64,000 bases of DNA from an uncultured Candidatus Saccharibacteria bacterium (lineage in GTDB: Bacteria > Patescibacteriota > Minisyncoccia > Phycocordibacterales > DATDWN01): NCBI GenBank assembly GCA_964603545.1, contig CAZRVD010000003.1:4945-68944 (forward strand), in the 5' to 3' direction. Positions 15,356 to 63,588 of this stretch are shown piece by piece (position 1 is the first letter of the stretch; every line of letters begins with the position of its first letter). The notes beneath the pieces were generated by a model. It was given only the letters and a program-made list of their open reading frames with translations, was not told where the DNA came from and did no database searches. The position numbers and the translations under genes were made by a program.

Positions 15356-16453
15356 TTAAATTTTAAACTCGATCACATCGCCGTCTTGGACTATGTATTC
15401 TTTTCCTTCTGTACGTACCAGCCCTTTTTCACGAGCAGAACCATACGAACCAACAGAAAGTAAATCATCACAATGCACAACTTCTGCTCGAATAAATTTG
15501 TCTTTAAAGTCCGTGTGGATAGCTTGACCCGCAACAGGTGCTGTAGAGTCACGCAATATTGTCCAAGCACGAGTTTCATCTTCTCCAGTTGTAAAGTATG
15601 TTATTAAGTTAAGAAGTTTATAGCCACCCTTAATTAAACTATCTATTCCATCGTCTTTTCCACCAAGTTCGACTCTAAAAACTTCTTTCTCCTCACCCTC
15701 CAAATCTTTTAATTCATTTTCTATGTTGGCGTCAATTATTACGTATTGATATTTATTCTCTTTAAAAAATTCTAAAAGTTTTTGAAACCTTAGGTCATTT
15801 GTTTCATCTAAGTTTTTTCCGCCTGCTTTTTTGTTAAGTGCGTACATTATTGGTTTAAATGTTAAAAGATTTAACATTTTTACAACAAATTTTTCTTTTT
15901 CATCTATTTCTAAGCTATTTACAAGTTTTCCTTCTTTTAAATGAGCCAAGACTTTTTGCAAAACTTCATTTTCAAAAACCGCCTCCTTTTTTCCTGCTTT
16001 TACGTCTTTTTGTAGATTACTGAGACGCTTTGTAACAGTATCTGTGTCTACTAACATAAGTTCAAAGTTTATAACTTCAATATCTGAAAGAGGGTCTATC
16101 ATTCCATGAACATGAATTACTTTGTCATCTTCAAAAATTCTTACCACCTCTACAATAGCATCAACTTCTCTAATGTTTGCTAGAAACTTATTGCCAAGAC
16201 CCTCTCCTTCACTCGCGCCCTTCACAAGCCCTGCGATATCAACAAATTCAACTACTGCTGGAATAGTTTTTTTTGATTTAGAAAATTCTGAAAGTTTCCA
16301 AAGTCTAGGATCTGGCACAGGAACAATACCTACAGATGGATCAATAGTACAAAAAGGATAGTTCTCTGCAGGGACAGACTTTTTTGTAAGTGCATTAAAA
16401 AGCGTGGACTTACCCACGTTTGGCAAACCGACAATTCCGATTGAAAGTGACAT
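15356..16453 (-). CDS. ychF: Ribosome-binding ATPase YchF (Obg-family GTPase/ATPase)
   Basis: [16 protein letters not shown]-loop and a C-terminal TGS domain. Confidence 0.9.
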
Positions 16454-16594
16454 GATTGCTACTATACATCAAAACTACATTTTTTTAAACATGGTACAAT
16501 TTTATTAGAGAGGTGTGCATGAAAATCTTTTGCGCATTGCTTATGCTCCTTATTACATCATTCACCGCAAAAGCTTTTTTTTATTAAAGAAAAG

Positions 16595-16645
16595 GCCGGT
16601 CACACGCATTGCATGACCGGGCCTTGAACCCCCTCGACCGAAGCC
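16595..16645 (-). terminator. Intrinsic terminator of the collagen-like gene
   Basis: GGCCGGTCAcacgcattgcaTGACCGGGCC hairpin, followed on the minus strand by a T-rich run. Confidence 0.55.
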
Positions 16646-16652
16646 GAGGAAC

Positions 16653-17678
16653 TTACTGCGGGGTGTGCTCGTGTATCGCCACTGCACTCAAGAGGTCTTG
16701 AGTGAGTGGAATGAGCGGAATCTTACCGTAGGTCAGAAATTGGTCGAGTGGTACCCACCCGCTGATCCAGGCCTTCCGTGCCTTGACGATTGCCAGGACG
16801 GTGTCGAGGTTGACCACGCACATGTGGAACCGCGGATTCTCCCACTGATTCTTCTCCCTGTTCAGTGTGTACATGTTGCCGATGAAGTAAAACGAGGCGG
16901 TTGAGGCCGGCTCGATGTTCGTCCATCGGAACGGTGCGACTTCTCCTCCCCGAGTGAAGCCGATGACTTCCTTCTTGTTGAGGTTGAAGAGTACCATCAC
17001 GTCCGTTTCGGGCGTGAACATGTACAGCCACTCACAGGGGCCATCCGGAGCTGGCACGGTGCCTGTGACGGTATTCGCCGTCACCACGAGACCTGGAATC
17101 TCGAAGTCCGCATGAACCTGCTTGAGGCGTTCACACATCGCGATCGTTCCCGGAGGGCCTGCCGGACCTTGCGGACCAGTTGCACCGGGAACGCCCTGTG
17201 GACCCATGGGGCCAGCCGGTCCGGGAGGTCCCGGAGGGCCGGGTTCACCATTGACCTGGTTCAGAAACCAGATCACGTGCCCAACGTACGCTCCAGCTTT
17301 AAGCTGGGTCACGCCGTTGTTGAACACCGATTTGGTGATCACGTCAACTCCATTCACCTTTTCGATAGTGTAGACCCATGCGTCGACCAGTCCCGGTGAC
17401 ACCTGCTTGACGCTGATGTTGTGAAGAGCTCCGCCCACCACGTGGACGACCTTGCACTGCCCGATTCCGAGACGTGCCGTTGTCAGCACTCCGAGGGACT
17501 CAATGCGGTAACCTGCGTAGACATTGCTACGCAGATCCTCGCAGATTTGAACGACCTCATATGTTGGCACCCCTGAAGCGTCCTCACCGACGGCTGGAAC
17601 GTTGGCCTGGGCACCTTCGGCCAACAAGTTCATGCCCAGAAAGATCGCGAGCCAGAGAACTGCCTTTATCACCTTCAT
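16653..17678 (-). CDS. Secreted collagen-like triple-helix-repeat protein (signal peptide + 11 G-X-Y triplets + C-terminal globular domain), G+C-rich foreign gene
   Basis: Start at [25 protein letters not shown], preceded by [41 protein letters not shown] run. Composition is visibly G+C-rich versus flanks. Confidence 0.7.
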
Positions 17679-17753
17679 CACTTTCTTTCTCCCTTGCCAA
17701 CTTAATGGCTTTTTGCACTGCCGAAAATGGCAACACAAATCTGTTCTGTGCGC

Positions 17754-21364: not shown

Positions 21365-21402
21365 AATCACCGACAAAACAAAGCCACGTCGATGCGTGGC
21401 TT
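21365..21402 (-). terminator. Intrinsic terminator of the 21443-21679 foreign gene
   Basis: AAGCCACGtcgatgCGTGGCTT hairpin followed by a T-rich run on the minus strand. Confidence 0.5.
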
Positions 21403-21442
21403 AGATTTCCAAGGGAACCAGTCTTGCCAGTCGTGCCAGGGT

Positions 21443-21679
21443 CTAGACCTGCCGACGACACGGGTCGCCGGAGCAGATGTTTACAAACTTGCATCTGCTA
21501 CAGTCCAGATTTGGGTCTGAAAACCCACCAACTCCATCCCGATTCTCCGTCATTGCGATCGTGCGCCTGTTGGCATCATTGGAGAACATTACTGCCTCTG
21601 ATGATGACATGCCCACCATGGCAAGAACCGAGAACTGCTGTGCGATAGCCTCTCTTATCTGACGTGACTTGAATGCCAT
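21443..21679 (-). CDS. Small G+C-rich foreign protein (~78 aa) with a C-terminal 4-Cys cluster
   Basis: Start chosen at MAFKSRQ because GGGGAGGG SD lies 9 nt upstream. C-terminus CSRCKFVNICSGDPC. Has its own promoter (TTGACA -17- TAGAAT at 21710-21738) and terminator. Confidence 0.4.
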   Translation of the reverse strand: MAFKSRQIREAIAQQFSVLAMVGMSSSEAVMFSNDANRRTIAMTENRDGVGGFSDPNLDCSRCKFVNICSGDPCRRQV

Positions 21680-24949: not shown

Positions 24950-25092
24950 AACTACATTTTACCATTATTAACTTGAAATGGCTTAATTAAGAGAATTGGG
25001 TGTTTGAGGGATTAAATTTATATAAAGACGAAGACCGCTGGGCGAACCATGCGGTCTTAACGAGTGAGAGTCTGAACTAGGAGAGACTCAGG

Positions 25093-25350
25093 ATGGCCGT
25101 TGCGAACGCATACGAAGTTCGCAACGTTGTCTCGTCATCCATTGTTCCGTTTGCCATTGCATCTGCAGTTTCGCTGCCGAGACATGCACGGAAAAAACCA
25201 GGCTCCGCCGCCTTCTCTCTCAACCAAGCGACAATCTCGCTTTTAACCATCGGCTTCTCCTCCTCTGATTATCAGAATATCATGTTAATCGGATTTGTCA
25301 AGTTTGTGGACCATAGGACTCTTCCTTCATTCTGTTTCGCCGTCGCTTAA
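25093..25350 (+). CDS. Doubtful small ORF in a G+C-rich, hairpin-dense region; may be non-coding
   Basis: AGGAGA sits 10 nt upstream of the ATG. But the reading frame contains perfect palindromes (GTTGCGAACgcatacgaaGTTCGCAAC). Confidence 0.2.
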   Translation: MAVANAYEVRNVVSSSIVPFAIASAVSLPRHARKKPGSAAFSLNQATISLLTIGFSSSDYQNIMLIGFVKFVDHRTLPSFCFAVA

Positions 25351-25481
25351 CAGAATTCAGGACGCAGATTCACGACAAGCGCTACTGCGCTCGTAAACCG
25401 TGAATCTGTTCGAGTCCTGACGTAAAGCTTTGCTTTACTTCGGGTCCACAACGAAAAAAGCGCCTCTCGGCGTTTTCGTTG

Positions 25482-25554
25482 TGGACCCGACAGGACTCGA
25501 ACCTGCCACCCCATCATTGCAAATGATGTGCTCTACCAGATGAGCTACGGGCCC
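25482..25554 (-). tRNA. tRNA-Ala (anticodon UGC)
   Basis: Reverse complement GGGCCCGTAGCTCATCTGGTAGAGCACATCATTTGCAATGATGGGGTGGCAGGTTCGAGTCCTGTCGGGTCCA. Cloverleaf folds, anticodon loop TTTGCAA, G3:U70 Ala identity pair, 73 nt, CCA not encoded. Confidence 0.85.
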
Positions 25555-25761
25555 ATTATGCCTAAGTAAATTAAACTGCTTTAATTTACTTTGGACTTAT
25601 GGGAGCCAGAGACATGTTTCGCTACCAAGCTAAACAGTCGAGGCGGGGTCGCGGAATTCTGCGAACGACGGTGAGCAAAATATCTGTGACCTAATGAAGA
25701 TTACCAAAATTATTTACAAAATTCAAGCGGGCACTTCGCGTGCCCGCTCGTGTGAGCTGTA

Positions 25762-26019
25762 CTACTTCTTTCGCTTGAGCTCGGCCAGTTCGTGTGAGGT
25801 CTCGTTCAACTGCGCACGAAGAGAAGCGATGAGCTTCACGGCTTCACTATTCTCCTTAAGGAGTCTTTTCAGCTCATCTTTGTGCTCGTTCCGCTTTGCA
25901 AAGTACTCACGAGCCTGGAAATTCCTGTTGTTCACTAAGGTTTGAACCTGTCGTTTGGTACGAGACTTGCGGTCTTTACGCGGTGGAAGTTCCTCGAGTC
26001 TTTTTCTGGTTTTGCCCAT
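25762..26019 (-). CDS. Small basic coiled-coil protein (85 aa), G+C-rich foreign
   Basis: GGAGGA SD 9 nt upstream. K/R/E-rich heptad-like sequence. GCGGGCACttcgCGTGCCCGC terminator at 25728-25755. Confidence 0.45.
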   Translation of the reverse strand: MGKTRKRLEELPPRKDRKSRTKRQVQTLVNNRNFQAREYFAKRNEHKDELKRLLKENSEAVKLIASLRAQLNETSHELAELKRKK

Positions 26020-26113
26020 CAGCGTTATCCTCCGTCTGGTAGATAGCTTATTGGTTTAAGACAGACTAGTCAACTTTGGTTAAAATTTCTTTCATTTACA
26101 AATAACAATAATA

Positions 26114-26584
26114 ATGCTTTTATATTATGCGGAAATGGAGGTGGGTGTGGAAATCGATGCGACGATACTGATGACCAGGCAAGTTCGACTGGAAGCCAGG
26201 ATGAGACAAAATGACATCACCAGGCAAACCATCAACAAGGTTCGAAGGGTAATGGAGGAAAGGGGCTACCGTCCCGTGACTGGAGCAGACCTGATTCCCA
26301 ACCAGGAAGCTGTCCAGATTGAAATTAGCACCTGGTTCGAAGAGGGTCGACTCATGGGTGAATTTGGGGTTGCCCCAGGGACTACCATCGTGACACTCAG
26401 TGACCCACCGGTCAGAAAAATAACTGCTCCCGGGAAGTCGACCAACATGGTCTTCTTTCGTTGCGTGAAGCCAGAAAGCTCAATCGAAATGAGCATGCCG
26501 GCATACGAATTCATTCAGGAACAGTTCCAAACACGAGACCCCCAGGGTCACACCAACCTCGCCAGATACTTCGTCAAGATATGA
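26114..26584 (+). CDS. Hypothetical protein (up to 156 aa), G+C-rich foreign
   Basis: GGAGG SD before an in-frame GTG at 26147 suggests a slightly shorter product. No recognisable motif. Confidence 0.4.
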   Translation: MLLYYAEMEVGVEIDATILMTRQVRLEARMRQNDITRQTINKVRRVMEERGYRPVTGADLIPNQEAVQIEISTWFEEGRLMGEFGVAPGTTIVTLSDPPVRKITAPGKSTNMVFFRCVKPESSIEMSMPAYEFIQEQFQTRDPQGHTNLARYFVKI

Positions 26585-26663
26585 AGGAGGGCGATGAAAG
26601 CAAAACGAGCTACGACAAGGAGGAGCTACGGCACTCTCCGGTCGGGCTCTTTCTTTTATAAAA

Positions 26664-27665
26664 TTATCTACTATTTAGAGAAAGTAAAAGTACGTGGTGG
26701 AGAAAATCTTTTACAGACGAGCCGACAGACTTAAGTGCAAGCGGAAAAAGAGAATTTTTTGCCATACCCGGAAGAGTATTAACTTCTAGAAAATAAACTC
26801 CCCTCTTTGGTGAGACAATAAAATCTGATCTTGAATAGTGTCGTAGTCCCAAGTGGTCATGAACTAGTGTGGCAAGAGCTTCCATTTCTCTTTTTTCTTT
26901 TGCTGTAAAATTTCCAGGACAAATTTCCTGACTTTCGCCATTGTATTTTGAATTGTAATCCCAAAAATCTGTATCTTTTTCTTTGTTAGAATTCTCACCT
27001 TTGTATCTTATTTCCACAGGAGGTAGAGAATATGTTTTACTGTTTCTAAAATTTTCTATCACTCCCACAGTTGCTTCTTTTCCAACAATAAACTCCTCAA
27101 CCAAAGCGTCCGACTGCAAAGATAAAACCTCATAAAGTGCATTATAAAAATCAACATAGGTGTTTACTATTTTTATTCCAAGAGAAGACCCGCCTTGAGT
27201 AGGTTTTACAACAAGTGGTCCTGGGATTGAATTGAAAATTTCTTTTGATTTAGCCTTTAAATCATCAGTCTGTCTTACTAATGCATATGTTGGAGTTTTT
27301 ATTCCAAAATTTTTTAAATGTTCCTTTGTTAGCCATTTATTCATAGCAAGAGCTGATGAATACTTGCCAGAACCGTTATGTTTCACCCCGTGATGAGCTA
27401 GAAGTTCTTGTAGTTTTCCGTCTTCACCATACTGCCCATGTAAAGCGTTCCAAACAACATCTACATTTTTTAAAATTTTCTCTGGTGACTTTTCTACTCC
27501 ATGCATGTGCCAAGACCCATCTTTTGAAATAAAAATGTCTATTGGTCTATGAGTTTCAGAAAGTAGTTCTAGAACATGGGCACCGCCAAGTAGAGATACT
27601 TCGTACTCGTTTGATGGTCCTCCACGTATCACCCCAATTCTAAGTGAGTCTGGTAATGTTTGCAT
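26664..27665 (-). CDS. ddl: D-alanine--D-alanine ligase
   Basis: ATP-grasp signature EEFIVGKEATVGVI, typical N-terminal domain, 333 aa. Confidence 0.9.
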   Translation of the reverse strand: MQTLPDSLRIGVIRGGPSNEYEVSLLGGAHVLELLSETHRPIDIFISKDGSWHMHGVEKSPEKILKNVDVVWNALHGQYGEDGKLQELLAHHGVKHNGSGKYSSALAMNKWLTKEHLKNFGIKTPTYALVRQTDDLKAKSKEIFNSIPGPLVVKPTQGGSSLGIKIVNTYVDFYNALYEVLSLQSDALVEEFIVGKEATVGVIENFRNSKTYSLPPVEIRYKGENSNKEKDTDFWDYNSKYNGESQEICPGNFTAKEKREMEALATLVHDHLGLRHYSRSDFIVSPKRGVYFLEVNTLPGMAKNSLFPLALKSVGSSVKDFLHHVLLLSLNSR

Positions 27666-28957: not shown

Positions 28958-29092
28958 TGCACCTACAAACCAATTTGGCGTTTTGGGTTCTCGTCGGTGG
29001 TCTTGGACTTCTCATCATCTGGAAGAGACACAGGTTGATGGACAGGATTCTTGACGTGATGGACAGCATAGACGAAATACTTGGGTGGTGAC
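28958..29092 (+). CDS. Small hydrophobic peptide (44 aa, single TM), G+C-rich foreign
   Basis: GGAGGGAAGG SD then ATG. MHLQTNLAFWVLVGGLGLLIIWKRHRLMDRILDVMDSIDEILGW. Below the 60-aa cutoff of the ORF track. Confidence 0.4.
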
Positions 29093-29203
29093 ATCCAACG
29101 AGAGCACACGGGTGCTGGGAGACCTATCTCCTGGCATGCCGTTTTTTTATCTTGACTTAACAGCATTTGGATTGTAGCATAAACAGAAGGAGACCTAGAC
29201 ACC

Positions 29204-29314
29204 ATGATCAGAACCCTTTTGATTATAGCCGGGTTTTGTGTGGTCGCGGGAGTAGTTGTCTGGTGTGTAGAACACCTATACGGTGGAACACCAGGCAGGA
29301 ATATCGGCGACTAA
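29204..29314 (+). CDS. Second small hydrophobic peptide (36 aa, single TM), G+C-rich foreign
   Basis: AAGGAGACC SD then ATG. MIRTLLIIAGFCVVAGVVVWCVEHLYGGTPGRNIGD. Confidence 0.35.
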   Translation: MIRTLLIIAGFCVVAGVVVWCVEHLYGGTPGRNIGD

Positions 29315-29328
29315 TGCGCACACGTGTG

Positions 29329-29360
29329 CCGGGAAGTGATTCCCGGCGCCGTTTTTCATT
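29329..29360 (+). terminator. Intrinsic terminator of the two-peptide cassette
   Basis: CCGGGAagtgatTCCCGG hairpin followed by CGCCGTTTTTCATTTATTTTATTTT. Confidence 0.55.
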
Positions 29361-32129: not shown

Positions 32130-32381
32130 ATGCTGACAAATACCAATGCAAATTTCAAGTTGCCTCCTGAAGAGAAGGTGACATGGATCGACCCTAGCGA
32201 GGCTGGAGATCTTGCGGAGACTGTCACGGAATACATCAGAGTATATGGTAGGGAGGGACTCACACTTCACTCAACCACCAACTCAACAGCACTGGAAAGG
32301 AATATCGTCCTTGCAACCTTGAGAAAAGACGGCAAGATCCTTCCAGGCACCTTCATAAAGTCTCTTCTCCGTAAAGTGTAG
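32130..32381 (+). CDS. Small G+C-rich foreign protein (~83 aa)
   Basis: GGGGGTG SD upstream of the MLTNTNANFK start. Own terminator downstream. Confidence 0.4.
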   Translation: MLTNTNANFKLPPEEKVTWIDPSEAGDLAETVTEYIRVYGREGLTLHSTTNSTALERNIVLATLRKDGKILPGTFIKSLLRKV

Positions 32382-32390
32382 AAAAGAAAC

Positions 32391-32435
32391 GCGGCGCTCC
32401 TCGGAAGTTCGAGGGCGCCGCTGTATCGTATTTAC
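32391..32435 (+). terminator. Intrinsic terminator of the 32130-32381 gene
   Basis: GCGGCGCTCctcggaagttcGAGGGCGCCGC hairpin then a T-rich tail. Confidence 0.45.
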
Positions 32436-34622: not shown

Positions 34623-34943
34623 CTACTTTTTTTTCTTAATTGGTAGTTCGTCCTGGTAAACACGACTCACACCACTTGCAGTCCAGACTTCAGTCAACAA
34701 GCCTTGGTTAATCCAATTGTAAATAGCCTTGGTGGAATAACCTGAGTATCTTGAAGCTCTCGTGATTGTCAGCGTGTTTCGATCGGGTTCAGAGGTCACA
34801 AGGCTGTCCCTGTACACAACTTTGTATCCACTCGGAGTCTCGTGACACTCTAGTTTACCCTCCGAAATCCATCTCTTAATGGTACGGATGTCGACACCAA
34901 CGATTTCAGCAGCTTTCTTCTTAGAAATAAGTTCTCTGCTCAC
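34623..34943 (-). CDS. Tandem helix-turn-helix DNA-binding protein (two excisionase/MerR-like HTH repeats)
   Basis: Two HTH units, AAEIVGVDIRTIKRWISEGKL and YSTKAIYNWINQGLL. G+C moderately elevated. Hairpins and a T-run lie downstream on the minus strand. Confidence 0.5.
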   Translation of the reverse strand: MSRELISKKKAAEIVGVDIRTIKRWISEGKLECHETPSGYKVVYRDSLVTSEPDRNTLTITRASRYSGYSTKAIYNWINQGLLTEVWTASGVSRVYQDELPIKKKK

Positions 34944-36283: not shown

Positions 36284-36313
36284 TATTTCACAGCGATATA
36301 TCGCTGTGAAATA
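36284..36313. repeat. Perfect 30-bp palindrome TATTTCACAGCGATATATCGCTGTGAAATA, copy 1 (24-bp core TTCACAGCGATATATCGCTGTGAA)
   Basis: Identical to 36584-36613, exactly 300 bp apart. The core also occurs at 63101-63124 and 63561-63584. Confidence 0.9.
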
Positions 36314-36323
36314 TTCTATGTAT

Positions 36324-36540
36324 AAAAAAACGGGTGGGTTGGGAGCGATAGATTGCTCCCTTCCCACCCGGTTCGGACGGTTTCTTTCCACCGTCATTGG
36401 TATTGCTGGCCGACTGCGGCCCTGACACGGACGATCGAACGTGAGTACGAGCGTAAGGTCGAAACAAGCTAGGAGTTCGAAACGGACGAGACAGAGTCGA
36501 AGTTTCCGAGGCAATAGGTGAAGGCATCCCTCCACCGCTA
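36324..36540 (-). ncRNA. Candidate ~215-nt small RNA in a G+C-rich cassette bracketed by the palindromes
   Basis: Promoter TTGACT(36570-36575)-17-TATGCT(36547-36552) on the minus strand. Terminator CGGGTGGGaagggagcaatctatcgctcccaaCCCACCCG + T7 at 36324-36370. No credible ORF (only low-complexity S/P/R read-through frames). Repeated UUCGA-containing hairpins. Confidence 0.35.
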
Positions 36541-36546
36541 ACAGCA

Positions 36547-36575
36547 AGCATACACCCATTCTCTAGTAAAGTCAA
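36547..36575 (-). promoter_or_regulatory. sigma70-like promoter (TTGACT -17- TATGCT) of the candidate sRNA, directly abutting palindrome copy 2
   Basis: Read directly on the minus strand. The palindrome centre lies ~60 nt upstream of the predicted TSS. Confidence 0.45.
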
Positions 36576-36583
36576 GTACACTT

Positions 36584-36613
36584 TATTTCACAGCGATATA
36601 TCGCTGTGAAATA
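36584..36613. repeat. Palindrome copy 2 (identical 30-mer)
   Basis: See 36284-36313. Confidence 0.9.
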
Positions 36614-40193: not shown

Positions 40194-40204
40194 GAAAAAA
40201 TTTT

Positions 40205-40251
40205 ATCATAGTATACGAAACCGCCCAAGCGAAGCGCGGCTTCGCTTGGGC
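40205..40251 (-). terminator. Intrinsic terminator of the Cys-rich foreign gene
   Basis: Perfect 14-bp stem CGCCCAAGCGAAGCgcgGCTTCGCTTGGGCG then a T-rich tail on the minus strand. Confidence 0.55.
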
Positions 40252-40252
40252 G

Positions 40253-40573
40253 TCATCCAAGAATTTCTCTCTTGATCTGCTCGAGGGTCTCGAGATCATG
40301 TTCACAGGAAATGCCCTGCTCTGCACAGTTGACGCACCCGCAGTCTCTTGAAGAGCCAGCGGGGTTGACCCAAACTGCACACCATGGGCCGACAACGTCC
40401 TGACCGAGATCATCAAACGCACAAAGCGCAACCTCACAATCTCCCTCAACGAAACGGGCGAGAAGGTCATTGGGTTGACCAGGTTGGGGGAAAATCCCCA
40501 CGTAGTAGAAACCACTTGCCTGCGCGGACTCGGGTGATTTGACTTGTTCCTCCACGTATCTCATCATGCGCAC
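40253..40573 (-). CDS. Small G+C-rich foreign Cys-rich protein (106 aa, 7 Cys)
   Basis: TTGACA -35, SD GGTAGAGGTG, DCEVALCAFDD...RDCGCVNCAEQGISCEHD. Confidence 0.4.
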   Translation of the reverse strand: MRMMRYVEEQVKSPESAQASGFYYVGIFPQPGQPNDLLARFVEGDCEVALCAFDDLGQDVVGPWCAVWVNPAGSSRDCGCVNCAEQGISCEHDLETLEQIKREILG

Positions 40574-40613
40574 CTCTACCCTACATGATGTAACTGCAAA
40601 GCAAAAATGTCAA

Positions 40614-41852
40614 TTATTCTATAAATGTAAGTGCTTTGCCACTCTTACCTGCTCTACCAGTACGACCAATACGGTGCACATAGTCCTCATAAGTCGCTGG
40701 CAAATCAAAGTTAATAACGTGTGACACGCCACTTATGTCTAGCCCTCGTGCAGCGACATCTGTAGCAACAAGTATTTGAGTTCTATCTTCTTTAAAAGTT
40801 TTCAGCGCACGCTGTCTTGCTGACTGGTTTTTGTCTCCATGAATTGACTCCGCTTTAAATCCTCTGTCTTTCAAAAGATTTGTTAGTTTTTCTACCCCGT
40901 GTTTTGTTCTGCCGAAAATCAAAACTTTGTTAAAGTCAGGTTGAATTAGCATGCTGTGTAGCACGTCTAGTTTGTTTTCCCCCCTCTGCACTTTTACAAC
41001 ATCTTGATCAACATTTTTTGAAGTGTCCCCTGTTTTAACAGAAATAGAAATCGGATTTTTTAGAAAATCTTTTATAAGCGCCTCAATCTCTGGTGAAATT
41101 GTAGCTGAAAAGAAAAGTGTATGTCTGTCTTTTGGCATAAGTGCCATCATGAACTTCATATCATTTATGAAACCCATATCCAGCATTCTGTCTGCTTCGT
41201 CTAGCACAACTGTTTTAAAAAACGAAAGGTTTAAAACTTTTCTCTCTATCAAATCTTTTATTCTTCCAGGTGTACCTATAACAAACTCATTTCTATATCG
41301 TAAATCCCGTATTTGAGACCCAATCGGTGCACCTCCAACGCAAACGGTAGAAAAAAGCCTCATGTTTCCTACAAACCCTCTCAGCTCTTCCTGAATCTGC
41401 AGTGCCAGTTCACGAGTAGGAACAACGATAAGAATGTTTTCTTTGTCATTACTTAAAACTTTATGAATTAGTGGTATTAGAAAAGCCGCCGTCTTTCCTG
41501 TACCTGTGTTTGCGATACCAACAACATCTTGCCCGCGTAGAACATGAGGGATGGCTTTATCTTGAATTGGTGTCGGGGTAACGTAGCCTTTTTCTATAAT
41601 ATTTTTCTTTAATCTTTCATCTATCAGAAAATCACTGAACTTGTGTTCAGGTACGAAAATAGTAGCTGTCTCCGTAACGACAGCTTTGTTAACAAATTTT
41701 GAAGGATGAATAGAATCCATTCTTCCTCTACCCCGTGATGGAGCTCTGCGAATTGGTGTGCCGAAACTTCTCCTCGCGCCCACGTTTCTACTTCCGCCAA
41801 ACGACGGCCGTCCAAAGGATCTTACGACCCTTCTTTGTGTATTTCTTTCCAT
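40614..41852 (-). CDS. DEAD-box ATP-dependent RNA helicase with N-terminal RG-rich extension
   Basis: Q-motif, ANTGTGKTAAF, DEAD in VVLDEADRMLDMGF, SAT, HRIGRTGRAG. Confidence 0.9.
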   Translation of the reverse strand: MERNTQRRVVRSFGRPSFGGSRNVGARRSFGTPIRRAPSRGRGRMDSIHPSKFVNKAVVTETATIFVPEHKFSDFLIDERLKKNIIEKGYVTPTPIQDKAIPHVLRGQDVVGIANTGTGKTAAFLIPLIHKVLSNDKENILIVVPTRELALQIQEELRGFVGNMRLFSTVCVGGAPIGSQIRDLRYRNEFVIGTPGRIKDLIERKVLNLSFFKTVVLDEADRMLDMGFINDMKFMMALMPKDRHTLFFSATISPEIEALIKDFLKNPISISVKTGDTSKNVDQDVVKVQRGENKLDVLHSMLIQPDFNKVLIFGRTKHGVEKLTNLLKDRGFKAESIHGDKNQSARQRALKTFKEDRTQILVATDVAARGLDISGVSHVINFDLPATYEDYVHRIGRTGRAGKSGKALTFIE

Positions 41853-42039: not shown

Positions 42040-42068
42040 TTGACTTTCTACATTAGAGATGCTATAAT
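42040..42068 (+). promoter_or_regulatory. Consensus sigma70 promoter (TTGACT -17- TATAAT) of the Pro-rich membrane protein cassette
   Basis: acTTGACTttctacattagagatgcTATAATtaag. Confidence 0.55.
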
Positions 42069-42147
42069 TAAGTGCAGGAATTCGTTGGTGTTGGTCTCCC
42101 CGAGGATGGGGTGAGACACTCTCGAATCTTTGACAGGGAGTACGCTC

Positions 42148-43047
42148 ATGACTCGACTGGTTCGGATTTTCGTCCTCGCCTTGGCGGTTACGCTGGTCGC
42201 CAGCACCGCAATGGCACAGAAGGGACAGTTCGTTGCTCCTGTGAATGCGGAACTCGACAAGTTCCCCATCTACAACGACGTGCTGACAGTGGCCCAGATG
42301 GCCAAGCACGAACTCACGGTGAAGGTTCTCACGGAGCCCACCGTCGTGCACAACCACTTCCGTGGCCTGCACGGCAAGGACGGGCGCTTCGTCCTGGAAC
42401 TCTTGCCCACCGGAACAATCGTGTTGGTGGACAAGGACGGTAGGATCCGCTACAAAGCGGACTGCGGGAATCGGCTGAGCGAAATGCCGCCGCCTCCCGC
42501 ACCCGTCTTGGGACCGGCGACACCCGTACCGTGCATCCCGGAAATTCTTCCGCTCGCTCCCAAACAGAGTGGGTGGTCGTGGTTCTGGGGTGGCATGTGG
42601 AATTTCCTTGCCTGGATCGCCAACGGTCTGGGCGGGTTGCTGGCAGGAATCTGGCACTGCCTGTGGTTCCTGCTGACCAGCATCGGCTGGCTGTTCCTCT
42701 TGGCGCTCATTCTGTGGTTGACATGGCGACTGTTGCGCTACCTCTTCGGAGGTAACCAGCAGAACAACGCCTGGGGAGGGGGCAACAACCCGCCTGCTCC
42801 AGTCGCACCGCTCGTCACACCGCGACAGACGGCGACGCCACCGCCGGCTCCGACACCTTCAGCAGTCGCCCCTTCGGCGATTCCTGTGGTGGCGGGACCG
42901 CTCACCACCCCCGATCGCTCTTTCCTGAACTTCAACCCAGGGGATGTGGGTCGTCCGGACATGCTGACGTGGGGCGGGCGGATCACTCCGCACTCCTACG
43001 AGGACCGGCCGGACGGGAGTCACGCACTCCGATTCTATCGGAGGTAA
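42148..43047 (+). CDS. G+C-rich foreign secreted/membrane protein (signal peptide, two central TM helices, Pro/Ala-rich C-terminal region)
   Basis: AGGGAG SD before the MTRLVRIFVLALAVTLVASTAMAQ start. The region is very G+C-rich. Confidence 0.5.
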   Translation: MTRLVRIFVLALAVTLVASTAMAQKGQFVAPVNAELDKFPIYNDVLTVAQMAKHELTVKVLTEPTVVHNHFRGLHGKDGRFVLELLPTGTIVLVDKDGRIRYKADCGNRLSEMPPPPAPVLGPATPVPCIPEILPLAPKQSGWSWFWGGMWNFLAWIANGLGGLLAGIWHCLWFLLTSIGWLFLLALILWLTWRLLRYLFGGNQQNNAWGGGNNPPAPVAPLVTPRQTATPPPAPTPSAVAPSAIPVVAGPLTTPDRSFLNFNPGDVGRPDMLTWGGRITPHSYEDRPDGSHALRFYRR

Positions 43048-43066
43048 CATAGAGGGGTCATCCCTC

Positions 43067-43105
43067 GGCGGCAGGTCCCACAAGACCTGCCGCCATTTCG
43101 TATAC
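43067..43105 (+). terminator. Intrinsic terminator of the 42148-43047 gene
   Basis: Perfect 11-bp stem GGCGGCAGGTCccacaaGACCTGCCGCC followed by ATTTCGTAT. Confidence 0.6.
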
Positions 43106-43418
43106 AAAATATAATATTTGTGGTCTATATTTTTATGCACAGAAAATTGACACTTGTAAACAAGATATGCACAGTATATCCACTAAATTCACACTTATAT
43201 ATTATTGACAAATGGTACCCTTGGAACAAAATTATAGTAGGTACAAAATCAATGAAGACATCCTCAAAATAAATAGTGAAATTAGTCTCGTCCCCGTGAG
43301 CCTTATGAACTCACACAAGAGACAAAAATTATCACAAATCGGGATGCGCCTTCACCCGAAAGTACCAGCGAAAACAAAGCCTCTCGTAATATCTACGGAG
43401 GTCTTTGTTTTGCATTTT

Positions 43419-43845: not shown

Positions 43846-43891
43846 ATAGTTAGAAATTACAACCCTGTGTTAACCACGAGAGGAGGTTCGA

Positions 43892-44542
43892 ATGTCTTCA
43901 CGACAGAAAGTAACGGACCTGCTTTTTGCGGTCCAGTTTGTTGGTGCAGCCTTGTTTTGTGGTGGCTACATCATGCGGTCGTTCTCAGACGTCACTGGAT
44001 CAAGCGTAGCACAGTTTGGCCTGGTAGAGATGTTTCTCTTGTTTCAATTGGCTCTAACGGTTAGTGCACACCGCACTTCCCCGAGTCGCTTAACGGAACA
44101 AGCAATCTGTACCTACCTGTTCTGGTTCATCCTCATGTTCCTCGTTATTGCTGTGGTGCTACTAAACCCAGCATACCGATGGAATGAAAAGGACACCACA
44201 ACTGCAATCGTTGCATTGGTTCTGACAGTTCTGACCCTTAGCTTTAACTACGCAAACGGGTCATCACTCAAAGACCCTTTCATCCGAGCACTGTTCGCAA
44301 TCGCGTACAAGTCAGTTCCCCAAGTACTCCTTGCCTGGAAATTCCTGGCAGAGGGCGCCTCGGGTACACCTGACTTGTCTGTGTATGTTGGACACGCCAC
44401 AATTCTCATTCGTCTTGGCCAGATCTACTTCATGGGAAAGGAAGCAGGCTGGGACCGAAACAGAATGTGGCTCTGGAGAAGCGAATGGGCCAACGAGATT
44501 AGTTGGCTTGTCGCCACAGTTGCGTGGTTTTTGGTTTCCTGA
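43892..44542 (+). CDS. G+C-rich foreign polytopic membrane protein (216 aa)
   Basis: GAGAGGAGG SD. Five to six hydrophobic helices. GGCCCTGGTCgaaaGACCCGGGCC terminator hairpin at 44549-44572. Confidence 0.5.
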   Translation: MSSRQKVTDLLFAVQFVGAALFCGGYIMRSFSDVTGSSVAQFGLVEMFLLFQLALTVSAHRTSPSRLTEQAICTYLFWFILMFLVIAVVLLNPAYRWNEKDTTTAIVALVLTVLTLSFNYANGSSLKDPFIRALFAIAYKSVPQVLLAWKFLAEGASGTPDLSVYVGHATILIRLGQIYFMGKEAGWDRNRMWLWRSEWANEISWLVATVAWFLVS

Positions 44543-44740
44543 GGCCCTGGTCGAAAGACCCGGGCCTCTTCTGTAATATAAAATCTCGTTGAACACATAT
44601 CTTTTTTGAGACTCCGCAGACCCAAAGCTTGGTTCCGTCAAGGCATTCCATCTTGACGGATTTAGGTCGAGGACTAAACGAACTCTCCGCAGGAGAGAGT
44701 GAGTGGTCTCAAAAAAGATATGTGTGAGAAAGAGATTACA

Positions 44741-57288: not shown

Positions 57289-57969
57289 CTATTGTGACAA
57301 AGTTGTGAAATTTCTTTCTGTACTCGTTGCACTGTTACCTCTTTCGTCAGTAATTTTTATCATGTAGTAGTATGTCGTGCTTGTGGAAAGGCCGGGAAGA
57401 TTTACAGAGTGTGTAAAGCTTAAATTATTTACAAAAAAATTTGCGGGTGAGGTAGAGGCTACTGGGGTGGTGTTGCTATACCAAAATTCTGACTTTACAT
57501 TTTTGTTTGCTGTCCAGAAAACATATCCTCGTGTTGGAGAATTGCTAGATGACTCAATTACAAACAACTGTGGTGTCACTATATAGTTGGTGGCCATTGC
57601 AAATAAGCTGTTTTTAGAAATTTTGTTCAGAAGTTCTCTAGTTTTTGGACCAACAATTCCGACTACCTCTAGGCCATTTTCCCCTTGTAGCTTCTTTATT
57701 GCCCGCTCTGTCAAAGTGCCAAAATAGCCCGTAATAAGGCCTTCTGGATATATGTTTGGCACCTTTGAAAGCTGTGACTGTAGAACCTTAACAGCATCCC
57801 CGCGTGAACCAAGCCGCAGACTAGGTGTAGGATTTGGCGGAGTATCCACCAAAGCCACCGTAGCCCCAGCCGTCTGCACTACAAAAAGCCCAGCCAAAAC
57901 CAAACCAAATATTGAAAAAGTTTTTTGTCTCATACTAAAATTATACCAATTTTCCACCAGAATAATCAA
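57289..57969 (-). CDS. Secreted protein with peptidoglycan-binding (PG_binding_1-like) domain and Ig/FN3-like C-terminal domain
   Basis: LRLGSRGDAVKVLQSQL...GYFGTLTERAIKKLQGENGL. Probable start at MRQKTFSIFGLVLAGLFVV, around 57933. Confidence 0.55.
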   Translation of the reverse strand: MIILVENWYNFSMRQKTFSIFGLVLAGLFVVQTAGATVALVDTPPNPTPSLRLGSRGDAVKVLQSQLSKVPNIYPEGLITGYFGTLTERAIKKLQGENGLEVVGIVGPKTRELLNKISKNSLFAMATNYIVTPQLFVIESSSNSPTRGYVFWTANKNVKSEFWYSNTTPVASTSPANFFVNNLSFTHSVNLPGLSTSTTYYYMIKITDERGNSATSTERNFTTLSQ

Positions 57970-58031
57970 TTTTAGACAAGACGATGGGGGCGCATCCCCC
58001 GAAGGAAATGCGCCCGTAGTACACGTCAGAT

Positions 58032-58439
58032 CTAGCCGACCTGGAAGGTCCTCATCAGGGTTTCCGAGGTCGCCGCCTCGAGGTCGCTTGCGAGAATCCT
58101 CGCCAGCATCGGATGCTCTCCGCTGACTGCGGTTCCACAGCTCTTCGGGATGACCCCGTCCACTGCCTCGTTCCGGTGTGGCATGACTGAGTACATGTAG
58201 AACCGAACCTGCGGATTGACCTGCTTTACCAGGCGGGCCAACTGCGAGCCCTCGATATGGCTGTCGAAGACCTGACCAGAGACCACGAACGCCGGAGAGC
58301 CATCCATCACAGCGTCCAGAACGGCTTCTGGAATACTGGTGAAGAGGATCTCCCGGGATCTCGCAGGATCGATCTTGGCAACCCCCTCCTTGATTCCGAG
58401 CAGATTCTCGCGATGACGCTGAGCCACGATGATCTTCAT
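58032..58439 (-). CDS. G+C-rich foreign hypothetical protein (136 aa)
   Basis: AAGGGAGGG SD before MKIIVAQ. GGGCGCATcccccgaaggaaATGCGCCC hairpin downstream at 57988-58015. No confident family assignment. Confidence 0.4.
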   Translation of the reverse strand: MKIIVAQRHRENLLGIKEGVAKIDPARSREILFTSIPEAVLDAVMDGSPAFVVSGQVFDSHIEGSQLARLVKQVNPQVRFYMYSVMPHRNEAVDGVIPKSCGTAVSGEHPMLARILASDLEAATSETLMRTFQVG

Positions 58440-58564
58440 ATGCCCTCCCTTGGGTAGAAACAACGAACAGAAATCCTGAACCTTATGACATTATACACCC
58501 GTTTACTATTATTGTCAAATACAATTTTAGTACTAAAACAACCTTACTTATACGACCAAAATTA

Positions 58565-63094: not shown

Positions 63095-63130
63095 TATTAA
63101 TTCACAGCGATATATCGCTGTGAATTAATA
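63095..63130. repeat. Perfect 36-bp palindrome TATTAATTCACAGCGATATATCGCTGTGAATTAATA, copy 3 of the 24-bp core
   Basis: Between the stop of the YerC-like gene and the start of the large hydrolase gene. Confidence 0.9.
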
Positions 63131-63556: not shown

Positions 63557-63588
63557 ATATTTCACAGCGATATATCGCTGTGAAATAT
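63557..63588. repeat. Perfect 32-bp palindrome ATATTTCACAGCGATATATCGCTGTGAAATAT, copy 4, ~25 nt upstream of the YerC-like start codon
   Basis: Read directly. Confidence 0.9.

Follow-up and report, generated by a model that had tools for sequence, protein, structure and literature searches.

The window, by which we mean the whole 64-kb stretch of DNA analysed here, is a chromosome segment of ~35-38% G+C from a groundwater bacterium of the Parcubacteria with a tiny genome, and carries a tRNA-Ala(UGC) gene and, abutting the 3' end of that gene, a conserved, non-coding, palindromic module of 175 bp (25302-25476). We find the DNA around this tRNA to be a composite, in which the small non-coding module and separate gene cassettes (here named p57, p85 and p156) are grouped around a native tRNA. 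Our preferred reading of the module, held tentatively and at a little under even confidence, is that of a miniature, non-autonomous insertion of the attachment-site (att) type, or the conserved remnant of one, at a tRNA-Ala hot spot. The evidence comprises the anatomy of the module and its conservation, the direct repeats that bound it, a module-less site in one relative, the covariation of its stems and the base composition of the locus.

The tRNA-Ala gene and the anatomy of the module

The tRNA gene lies on the minus strand at 25481-25554 (ARAGORN) or 25482-25554 (Rfam) and does not encode its CCA end. It scores 63.9 bits against RF00005, for which the gathering score is 29, is called Ala(tgc) by ARAGORN, and is both the sole tRNA and the sole Rfam match in the 64 kb. 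The G3:U70 pair can be read directly from the sequence (GGGCCCG...CGGGTCC); the two programs and this reading thus agree with the first-pass annotation, made from the bare sequence, which had described a canonical tRNA-Ala(UGC) with G3:U70.

With the Ddl gene (26664-27665, minus) as an anchor we collected 17 related loci, denoted here by L-numbers, W being the window's own copy. Linkage of tRNA-Ala(UGC) to Ddl recurs in 11 related loci; the two genes share a strand in L008, L009, L010, L018/L020, L027 and L031, where the tRNA follows Ddl, and lie on opposite strands in L007, L029, L030 and L033. In L009 and L010 it begins 34-46 nt past the Ddl stop and nothing else surrounds it. Because the linkage is found across relatives, including these island-free loci, the tRNA-Ala gene is native and its linkage to Ddl ancestral across the related Parcubacteria, which removes an earlier doubt as to whether the tRNA belonged to the host. 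Relatives differ in what DNA surrounds the tRNA and in which direction it is turned; between Ddl and the acyltransferase and VanW genes, the nearest that they share, almost every one of them has its own set of small genes.

Read along the plus strand, the module consists of copy A (an antisense tRNA 3' end), hairpins H1 and H2, copy B and a bidirectional terminator, after which the real tRNA runs the opposite way. Copy A (25302-25320, minus) repeats the tRNA 3' end (nt ~56-73 plus CAA) in direct orientation but in decayed form; it reads GAGTCCTAT--GGTCCACAA on the tRNA-sense strand and constitutes a third copy of that end, not recognized in the first-pass annotation. H1 (25323-25362) has 14-bp arms and the loop TCGCCGTCGCTT, its equivalent in L006 having a different stem and a similar loop, and H2 (25365-25408) has a perfect 10-bp outer stem, CAGATTCACG/CGTGAATCTG, at a place where relatives carry a hairpin of other sequence. 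Neither H1 nor H2 derives from the tRNA. Copy B (25408-25451, plus) repeats nt 53-73 of tRNA-Ala and the trailer in inverted orientation and is split between nt 64 and 65 by AC-[H3, 25422-25438]-T, where H3 is a further hairpin; its 39-nt core is identical in L006. The core of the bidirectional intrinsic terminator (25452-25476; A6-GCGCC-TCTC-GGCG-T4) forms the centre of an inverted repeat (25440-25490), and homologous terminators are present in all nine of the modules that we know.

Two of the tRNA-derived repeats had been noticed before, and both are real. The inverted repeat that reuses the acceptor 3' half is longer than had been claimed, with perfect 18-nt arms over the tRNA 3' end (25440-25457 and 25473-25490), and the inverted partial copy of the T-arm (25408-25422 against 25488-25502) extends over 15 nt at 93% identity. 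The fold predicted for 25300-25482 has an energy of -82.9 kcal/mol on the plus strand and -87.1 kcal/mol on the minus strand (z ~ -9.5), a stability that none of 200 shuffles reached. Its minimum-energy layout is the same in W, L018, L027, L031 and L033: pairing between copies A and B closes the structure, H3 branches from it, and H1 and H2 lie inside. The earlier description of 25040-25440 as densely packed with hairpins holds in part. The hairpins that it named (25098-25126, confirmed in repeat analysis; 25365-25408; 25021-25048) exist, but only 25300-25480 is unusually structured; 25015-25275 is not, since it folds with z = -1.3 relative to shuffles.

Distribution of the module and possible traces of insertion

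The module occurs in nine genomes (W, L006, L007, L017, L018, L027, L030, L031 and L033) and always abuts a tRNA-Ala 3' end, although in L006 the tRNA is reduced to its last 8 nt. No locus has more than one copy, and the rest of the 64-kb window has none, on which grounds we rejected a multi-copy repeat of the miniature inverted-repeat transposable element or repetitive extragenic palindrome type.

Copy A is well preserved in L027, L031 and L033 (TTGTGGACCCGACAGGA[C/A]T), where together with the tRNA gene it forms direct repeats of 19, 16 and 17 nt, respectively. These repeats run from T-loop position 58 of the tRNA to 3 nt past the discriminator (nt 58-73 plus trailer), and in the same three loci a second terminator, unrelated in sequence to the first, stands beyond copy A. 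In L029, the Ddl sister of L033 at 83% amino acid identity, the outside region aligns with the DNA outside the module of L027 and joins the tRNA directly; searches with nhmmer found no module in L029, L009 or L010. Direct repeats and the L029 junction together present what appears to be the pattern of elements that integrate in the T-loop of a tRNA gene and supply a replacement 3' end. The earlier suggestion of att-type, tRNA-derived repeats is thereby strengthened, the better-preserved relatives having 16-19-bp direct repeats that bound the module.

Three subtypes can be distinguished, namely I (W, L006, L017, L030), II (L007, L031, L018) and III (L027, L033). Members of subtypes I and II share 83-93% identity over the 3' half (copy B, H3 and terminator), compared with 63-72% for Ddl DNA in the same pairs; the 5' half is near random in identity, except in close pairs. 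The subtypes do not follow the host tree, which is a neighbour-joining tree of one protein, Ddl, from a small sample. L027, with type III, has as its Ddl sister L030, with type I; L033, again of type III, is sister to L029, which has no module; L018/L020, with a partial Ddl that is ~47% identical to that of the window and lies far outside the clade, has type II; and the module is absent from the intermediate L009 and L010. This pattern suggests that the module may have moved horizontally or been replaced by recombination. Hence, to the question of whether the region as a whole is ancestral in all relatives, the answer is divided: the tRNA is ancestral, whereas the module and the p85 and p156 families are shared by some relatives only, are high in G+C, and are distributed patchily and off the host tree.

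Explanations for the module

According to our preferred reading, the native tRNA-Ala(UGC) would be a hot spot for insertion and rearrangement in one clade of Parcubacteria. The inserted module would have brought a replacement tRNA 3' end and its own bidirectional terminator, as an integrating element does, and the old 3' end, displaced downstream, would since have decayed into copy A. A site-specific recombinase would, we infer, have made the insertion. H1, H2 and copy B, split as it is by H3, may act or have acted as DNA-level palindromes, either as recombinase-binding sites or as folded-strand sites; gene conversion with the neighbouring tRNA, or template-switch correction that uses it, would probably preserve their perfect pairing. 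The genes p57, p85 and p156 would be separate, self-contained cassettes, each with its own promoter, Shine-Dalgarno (SD) sequence and terminator, gathered in the hot spot from a G+C-richer gene pool.

Several points weigh against this account. Only nine copies of the module are known, and the search pattern by which several of these were retrieved demanded the conserved core, which inflates core invariance for L017 and L018. Copy A of W scores no better than the best background match, so that the argument from direct repeats rests on the relatives. At the module-less site of L029 an earlier module may have decayed, so that the site would not be virgin: decayed pieces resembling tRNA 3' ends are found in the outside regions of L027, L029 and L033 and in the tRNA 5' leader, both in W and L027 and in the inverted leader of L031, which implies that the locus has been hit many times and that any 'empty' state is only relative. 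No Pfam domain of an integrase, recombinase or transposase occurs in the ~45 open reading frames (ORFs) checked across the window, in keeping with the lack of an integrase recorded in the first-pass annotation, or in the called genes of the relatives' flanks; it is because of this absence that the module would be non-autonomous or a remnant. We know of no free or circular form of the module and of no attP, and a simple integrase model leaves the inverted target copy within the module unexplained. Finally, a functional RNA, or a site that binds protein for reasons other than mobility, could likewise account for how strongly the 3' half and the hairpin loops are conserved. The sole nuclease-like neighbour of a module is a gene for a 111-aa protein with a weak match to DUF559, of Vsr-like endonuclease fold, in L027 (6594-6929; 21 bits against a cut-off of 20.6).

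The behaviour of the hairpins bears on whether the module might instead be a functional structured RNA, transcribed either by read-through from tRNA-Ala, as its trailer, or in antisense up to the terminator common to both. In such a multi-branch RNA a mimic of the tRNA 3' strand would pair with its complement, and the molecule would serve in tRNA processing, insulation or as a decoy. We consider this unlikely. The very stable fold on both strands, the architecture common to five loci and a 3' half more conserved than Ddl would all be expected of such an RNA, as would the changes seen in H3, where five different stems are all perfectly paired, with double-sided changes at five of five outer pairs and no one-sided change, and the hairpin loops of the module, which stay fixed while the stems differ (TCGCCGYC... 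in W and L006, TTACA in L027 and L033, TGTC in L007, L031 and L018). However, G·U pairs are nearly absent (0-5 among 43-79 predicted pairs), the stems are symmetric and folding energies similar between strands, and the closing stems, being descended from the tRNA, carry no independent covariation. Moreover, no promoter-like site was found on the module strand, a terminator stands directly upstream of the module in L027, L031 and L033, and a transcript on the tRNA strand would meet a terminator before it reached the module. Since the stems covary without G·U pairs, the loops are fixed, the strands are symmetric and a promoter is absent, the hairpins fit the DNA level better than RNA; we therefore favour hairpins that would matter as DNA, as protein-binding palindromes or folded single strands, and infer that they work at that level. 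An Rfam scan of the window and six relatives, at the gathering threshold and at E<=10, matched the module to no RNA family, and in the window returned the tRNA only, which leaves the earlier reading of 25040-25440 as a structured RNA weak. A transfer-messenger RNA (tmRNA) was likewise rejected: ARAGORN called none, and the permuted tmRNA model reached 16.5 bits, against a gathering score of 47, by matching the T-arm of the real tRNA.

An explanation without any mobile element, to which we likewise assign a low probability, is template switching during replication. Fold-back at a long palindromic terminator, with which the tRNA 3' end already overlapped, would have produced a direct-inverted-direct triplication of that end, of the type known as DUP-TRP/INV-DUP (duplication flanking an inverted triplication), quasi-palindrome correction would keep the hairpins, and the module would be functionless. 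The arrangement of direct, inverted and direct copies centred on the terminator hairpin is what such an event leaves; even at the uninterrupted site of L029, the stem of the terminator takes in the last tRNA bases. Mirror-image tRNA 5' fragments, one sense and one antisense, lie upstream in L018 and duplicated 5' fragments in L031 and L012, and correction would yield perfect Watson-Crick stems with hardly any G·U, as observed. Yet the two terminators are unrelated in sequence, what lies between the copies of the tRNA end (H1, H2 and a different terminator) is foreign to the tRNA, and the hairpins keep their loops through changes of stem. Across relatives so diverged one would expect a neutral scar to have decayed, whereas the 3' half is better conserved than a housekeeping gene, and this conservation, with a distribution of subtypes incongruent with the host tree, argues for more than a one-off error of replication.

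We think it distinctly unlikely that the modules are living miniature hairpin-based mobile units of an undescribed class, which would target the region from the T-loop to the 3' end of tRNA-Ala, and perhaps other palindromes, by means of folded strands and a recombinase encoded elsewhere, and which would also seed the genome with G+C-rich ORFan cassettes, a further one of which, at 36315-36580, stands between two copies of a perfect palindrome; a full-text literature search found no description of such a module. Very unlikely, and largely refuted by the comparative data as we read them, is the account of the first-pass annotation, a single recent island that arrived beside or with the tRNA carrying two foreign ORFs and a structured RNA at 25040-25440, since for all its excess of G+C, the high third-position G+C of its ORFs, its tRNA-derived repeats and the lack of homologs outside the clade, the linkage of tRNA and Ddl is ancestral, the p85 and p156 families already occupy the locus in relatives with 65-78% Ddl identity, 25015-25275 folds like shuffled sequence and holds a minus-strand 57-aa cassette, and G+C-rich islets occur throughout the window.

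Two further candidates were discarded. A casposon or other transposon does not fit insertion ends that lack terminal inverted repeats. A remnant of an IS110 bridge RNA or of a TnpB/IscB guide RNA was set aside in view of the absence of an adjacent recombinase or nuclease, the nature of the tRNA-matching parts, which are stems of 15-20 nt and not short loop guides, and the terminator that separates the module from the flank.

Read as an att-type insertion, the module shares features with several known systems. Genomic islands and prophages reportedly insert through their integrases at the 3' ends of tRNA genes, with the T-loop as one sublocation. As with such elements, the DNA enters at the T-loop and supplies the tRNA with a new 3' end, a direct repeat of 16-19 bp stretches from the T-loop slightly beyond the tRNA, with the displaced fragment at the far edge, and repeated events pile up beside one tRNA. 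Unlike them, the insertion is only ~140-210 bp long and has neither integrase nor genes, it contains an inverted copy of its target split by a hairpin, and it is single-copy and conserved across genomes ~30% apart in a housekeeping protein. Cis-mobilizable elements, known from streptococci, are att-bounded, integrase-less derivatives of integrative elements; they are kilobases long and clearly derive from a known integrative and conjugative element. They resemble the module in being non-autonomous, in having attL/attR-like repeats at a tRNA-type site and in being movable only by a recombinase acting in trans, but the module is ~10 times smaller and has no identified parent element or recombinase.

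Sites that function as folded hairpins are represented by integron attC and by the pdif modules, alternating in orientation, of Acinetobacter plasmids. Here too structure is kept while stem sequence changes, and perfect palindromes carry an asymmetric extra element on one arm; at the level of the locus, site copies alternate in orientation and bracket small modules, the neighbouring small genes are self-contained, and orientation flips between relatives. In contrast to attC and pdif, no IntI or Xer gene is linked to the locus, the repeated site is a tRNA 3' end and not an attC or dif consensus, the cassettes of the locus have their own promoters, and the defining motifs of attC and pdif were not found.

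Bacteria of the Candidate Phyla Radiation have tiny genomes with few recognised mobile elements, yet many lineage-specific small genes whose gain calls for an explanation. The present locus offers a comparable case, in which a conserved tRNA repeatedly collects DNA bounded by tRNA ends, a small palindromic module is conserved above a housekeeping gene while its distribution runs against the host tree, and orphan genes, wherever a relative has them, show a G+C content at third codon positions (GC3) 2-3 times the host value. Should the module prove mobile or functional, a recombination system so far unrecognised would be indicated; as a mere scar, the locus would still serve as a marker for the ageing of insertion hot spots in streamlined genomes. 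The locus is also a warning that clusters of hairpins flanking a tRNA need not be RNA genes.

Gene cassettes, the tRNA 5' side and G+C-rich islets

The G+C-rich DNA first noticed around the tRNA is evident from composition, 25000-26650 having a G+C content of 0.47-0.52 against 0.26-0.37 in the flanks. It is not one island with cargo but a composite, in which three small genes accompany the module. Their GC3 of 0.55-0.59 (0.47-0.72 in homologs) stands against 0.19-0.29 in core genes of the same genomes, so that the description of the small ORFs as compositionally foreign was well founded.

The segment 25015-25275 is an ordinary minus-strand gene cassette with promoter, SD, ORF and terminator. 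Its gene, p57 (25077-25250, minus; GC3 0.55), encodes a 57-aa ORFan, has the SD sequence GAGGAGGAG 8 nt upstream of its ATG, and was called in two independent assemblies; it had no Pfam or PHROG match, and tblastn of the relatives returned no homolog. A sigma-70-like promoter, TTGACA-16-TATTCT (25274-25301, minus; 10 of 12 matches plus a TG extension), abuts copy A, as does the hexamer TTGACAAA in L006. The hairpin AAGACCGC-12 nt-GCGGTCTT (25021-25048, minus), read from the sequence at the left edge of the G+C-rich DNA, is the likely p57 terminator. An 85-aa ORF on the plus strand (25093-25350), previously annotated here, was rejected: it crosses the p57 promoter into the conserved non-coding module, has no homolog, and is passed over by gene callers in favour of p57.

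The other two ORFs, of 85 and 156 aa, exist as originally described. The first, p85 (25762-26019, minus; GC3 0.58), is an ORFan with a basic N-terminus and a coiled coil, followed by an intrinsic terminator of 11 pairs, 8 of them G-C (25724-25750, minus); its homologs, which sit at this locus too, occur only in five related genomes, L006 (57% identity), L008, L029 and L025/L026. The second, p156 (26114-26584, plus; GC3 0.59), belongs to a family of 14 representatives without annotation, retrieved by an exhaustive HMMER search of 1.84 billion proteins; one 943-aa repeat protein among its relatives looks spurious. Family members adjoin Ddl in L006, L031 and L032 and, since they are typically 117-128 aa long, the true start of p156 is probably Met30 at 26201. 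AlphaFold2 models p156 with a predicted local distance difference test (pLDDT) score of 87 and a predicted template modelling score of 0.80 from 13 sequences, compared with a pLDDT of 36 from the p156 sequence alone, and the model matched no fold in the PDB or among viral models at E<0.01.

Searches for an origin of these genes remained within the clade. Pfam and PHROGs gave nothing above threshold for p57, p85, p156 and their homologs, a word-index search of 5.8 billion proteins with p85 and p156 returned the clade itself only, and neither a tblastn search of phages nor the viral contigs of IMG/VR and the PHROGs held a relative of p85 or p156; a blastn search of plasmids matched the tRNA alone. 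Because their families recur at the locus in relatives with 65-78% Ddl identity, p85 and p156 are not recent cargo. They have either resided at the locus since before the lineages split or been repeatedly re-imported.

On the 5' side of the tRNA lies a structured leader (25555-25690, minus; fold z = -4.2), which is unusually long; it is homologous in L027 and inverted in L031, and one of its hairpins (25552-25603) overlaps tRNA nt 1-3. Duplicated 19-20-nt fragments of the tRNA-Ala 5' end stand 106-153 nt upstream of the real tRNA in L018 (337-460), L031 (6652-6800) and L012 (3858-3960), split by inserted hairpins in two of the three. In L018 the anticodon and D-arm region is repeated in antisense after the 5' fragment, which mirrors the arrangement at the 3' end. 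A possible decayed relic of a tRNA 5' end in the window (26616-26636, minus; CCGTAGCTCCTC against CCGTAGCTCATC; score 19, ~99th percentile of background) lies ~27 nt past the Ddl stop, near the position at which the tRNA starts in the island-free relatives; as a 12-nt match with one mismatch, it is a weak lead only.

Upstream of Ddl, five relatives carry a conserved run of hairpins of ~180 nt (...GGGACCTTCGGGTCCAGC...GAGCGCTC...), which lacks an Rfam match and is absent from the window (L006, 9800-9990; L025, 2960-3130; L026, 1-170; L029, 4710-4890; L008, 1700-1880); it is a candidate for a new RNA or leader. The flank of L006 also contains a LOOT RNA (Rfam RF03000, 52 bits; 15465-15582).

The window holds at least 10 other short G+C-rich islets with small genes, at 45-66% G+C compared with ~35% for the genome, among them 16551-17750, 21376-21675, 28976-29350, 32151-32400, 34626-34900, 40201-40650, 42051-43125, 43876-44675 and 57676-58475. 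In most, a single ORFan gene, small or secreted, is equipped with an SD of its own and ends in a strong hairpin terminator; the products include a collagen-repeat protein and a membrane protein of 305 aa, the latter from a gene with a GC3 of 0.75. Relatives carry islets between the same core genes. Their spread through the window means that small G+C-rich genes are not tied to tRNAs.

The Ddl protein of the window is identical to that of the metagenome-assembled genome 'Parcubacteria group bacterium Gr01-1014_46'. A contig in the European Nucleotide Archive carries the same DNA as the window with only two single-nucleotide differences over 21 kb (17307 and 26316), both of which fall within G+C-rich islets. 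The DNA is also present in Logan unitigs; those of SRR8863434 (L001, L005) end at 25024-25053, the left edge of the G+C-rich block, and at 26321, within the 156-aa ORF, a hint that the population may vary there.

The window contains four copies of a perfect palindrome, TTTCACAGCGATATATCGCTGTGAAA (36286-36311, 36586-36611, 63100-63125 and 63560-63585), where chance would lead one to expect none. The first pair, 300 bp apart, brackets a G+C-rich cassette with an 87-aa minus-strand ORF (36315-36580; palindrome 26-34 bp) and the second a gene with a Trp-repressor domain; these pairs look like paired operators or duplicated insertion targets.

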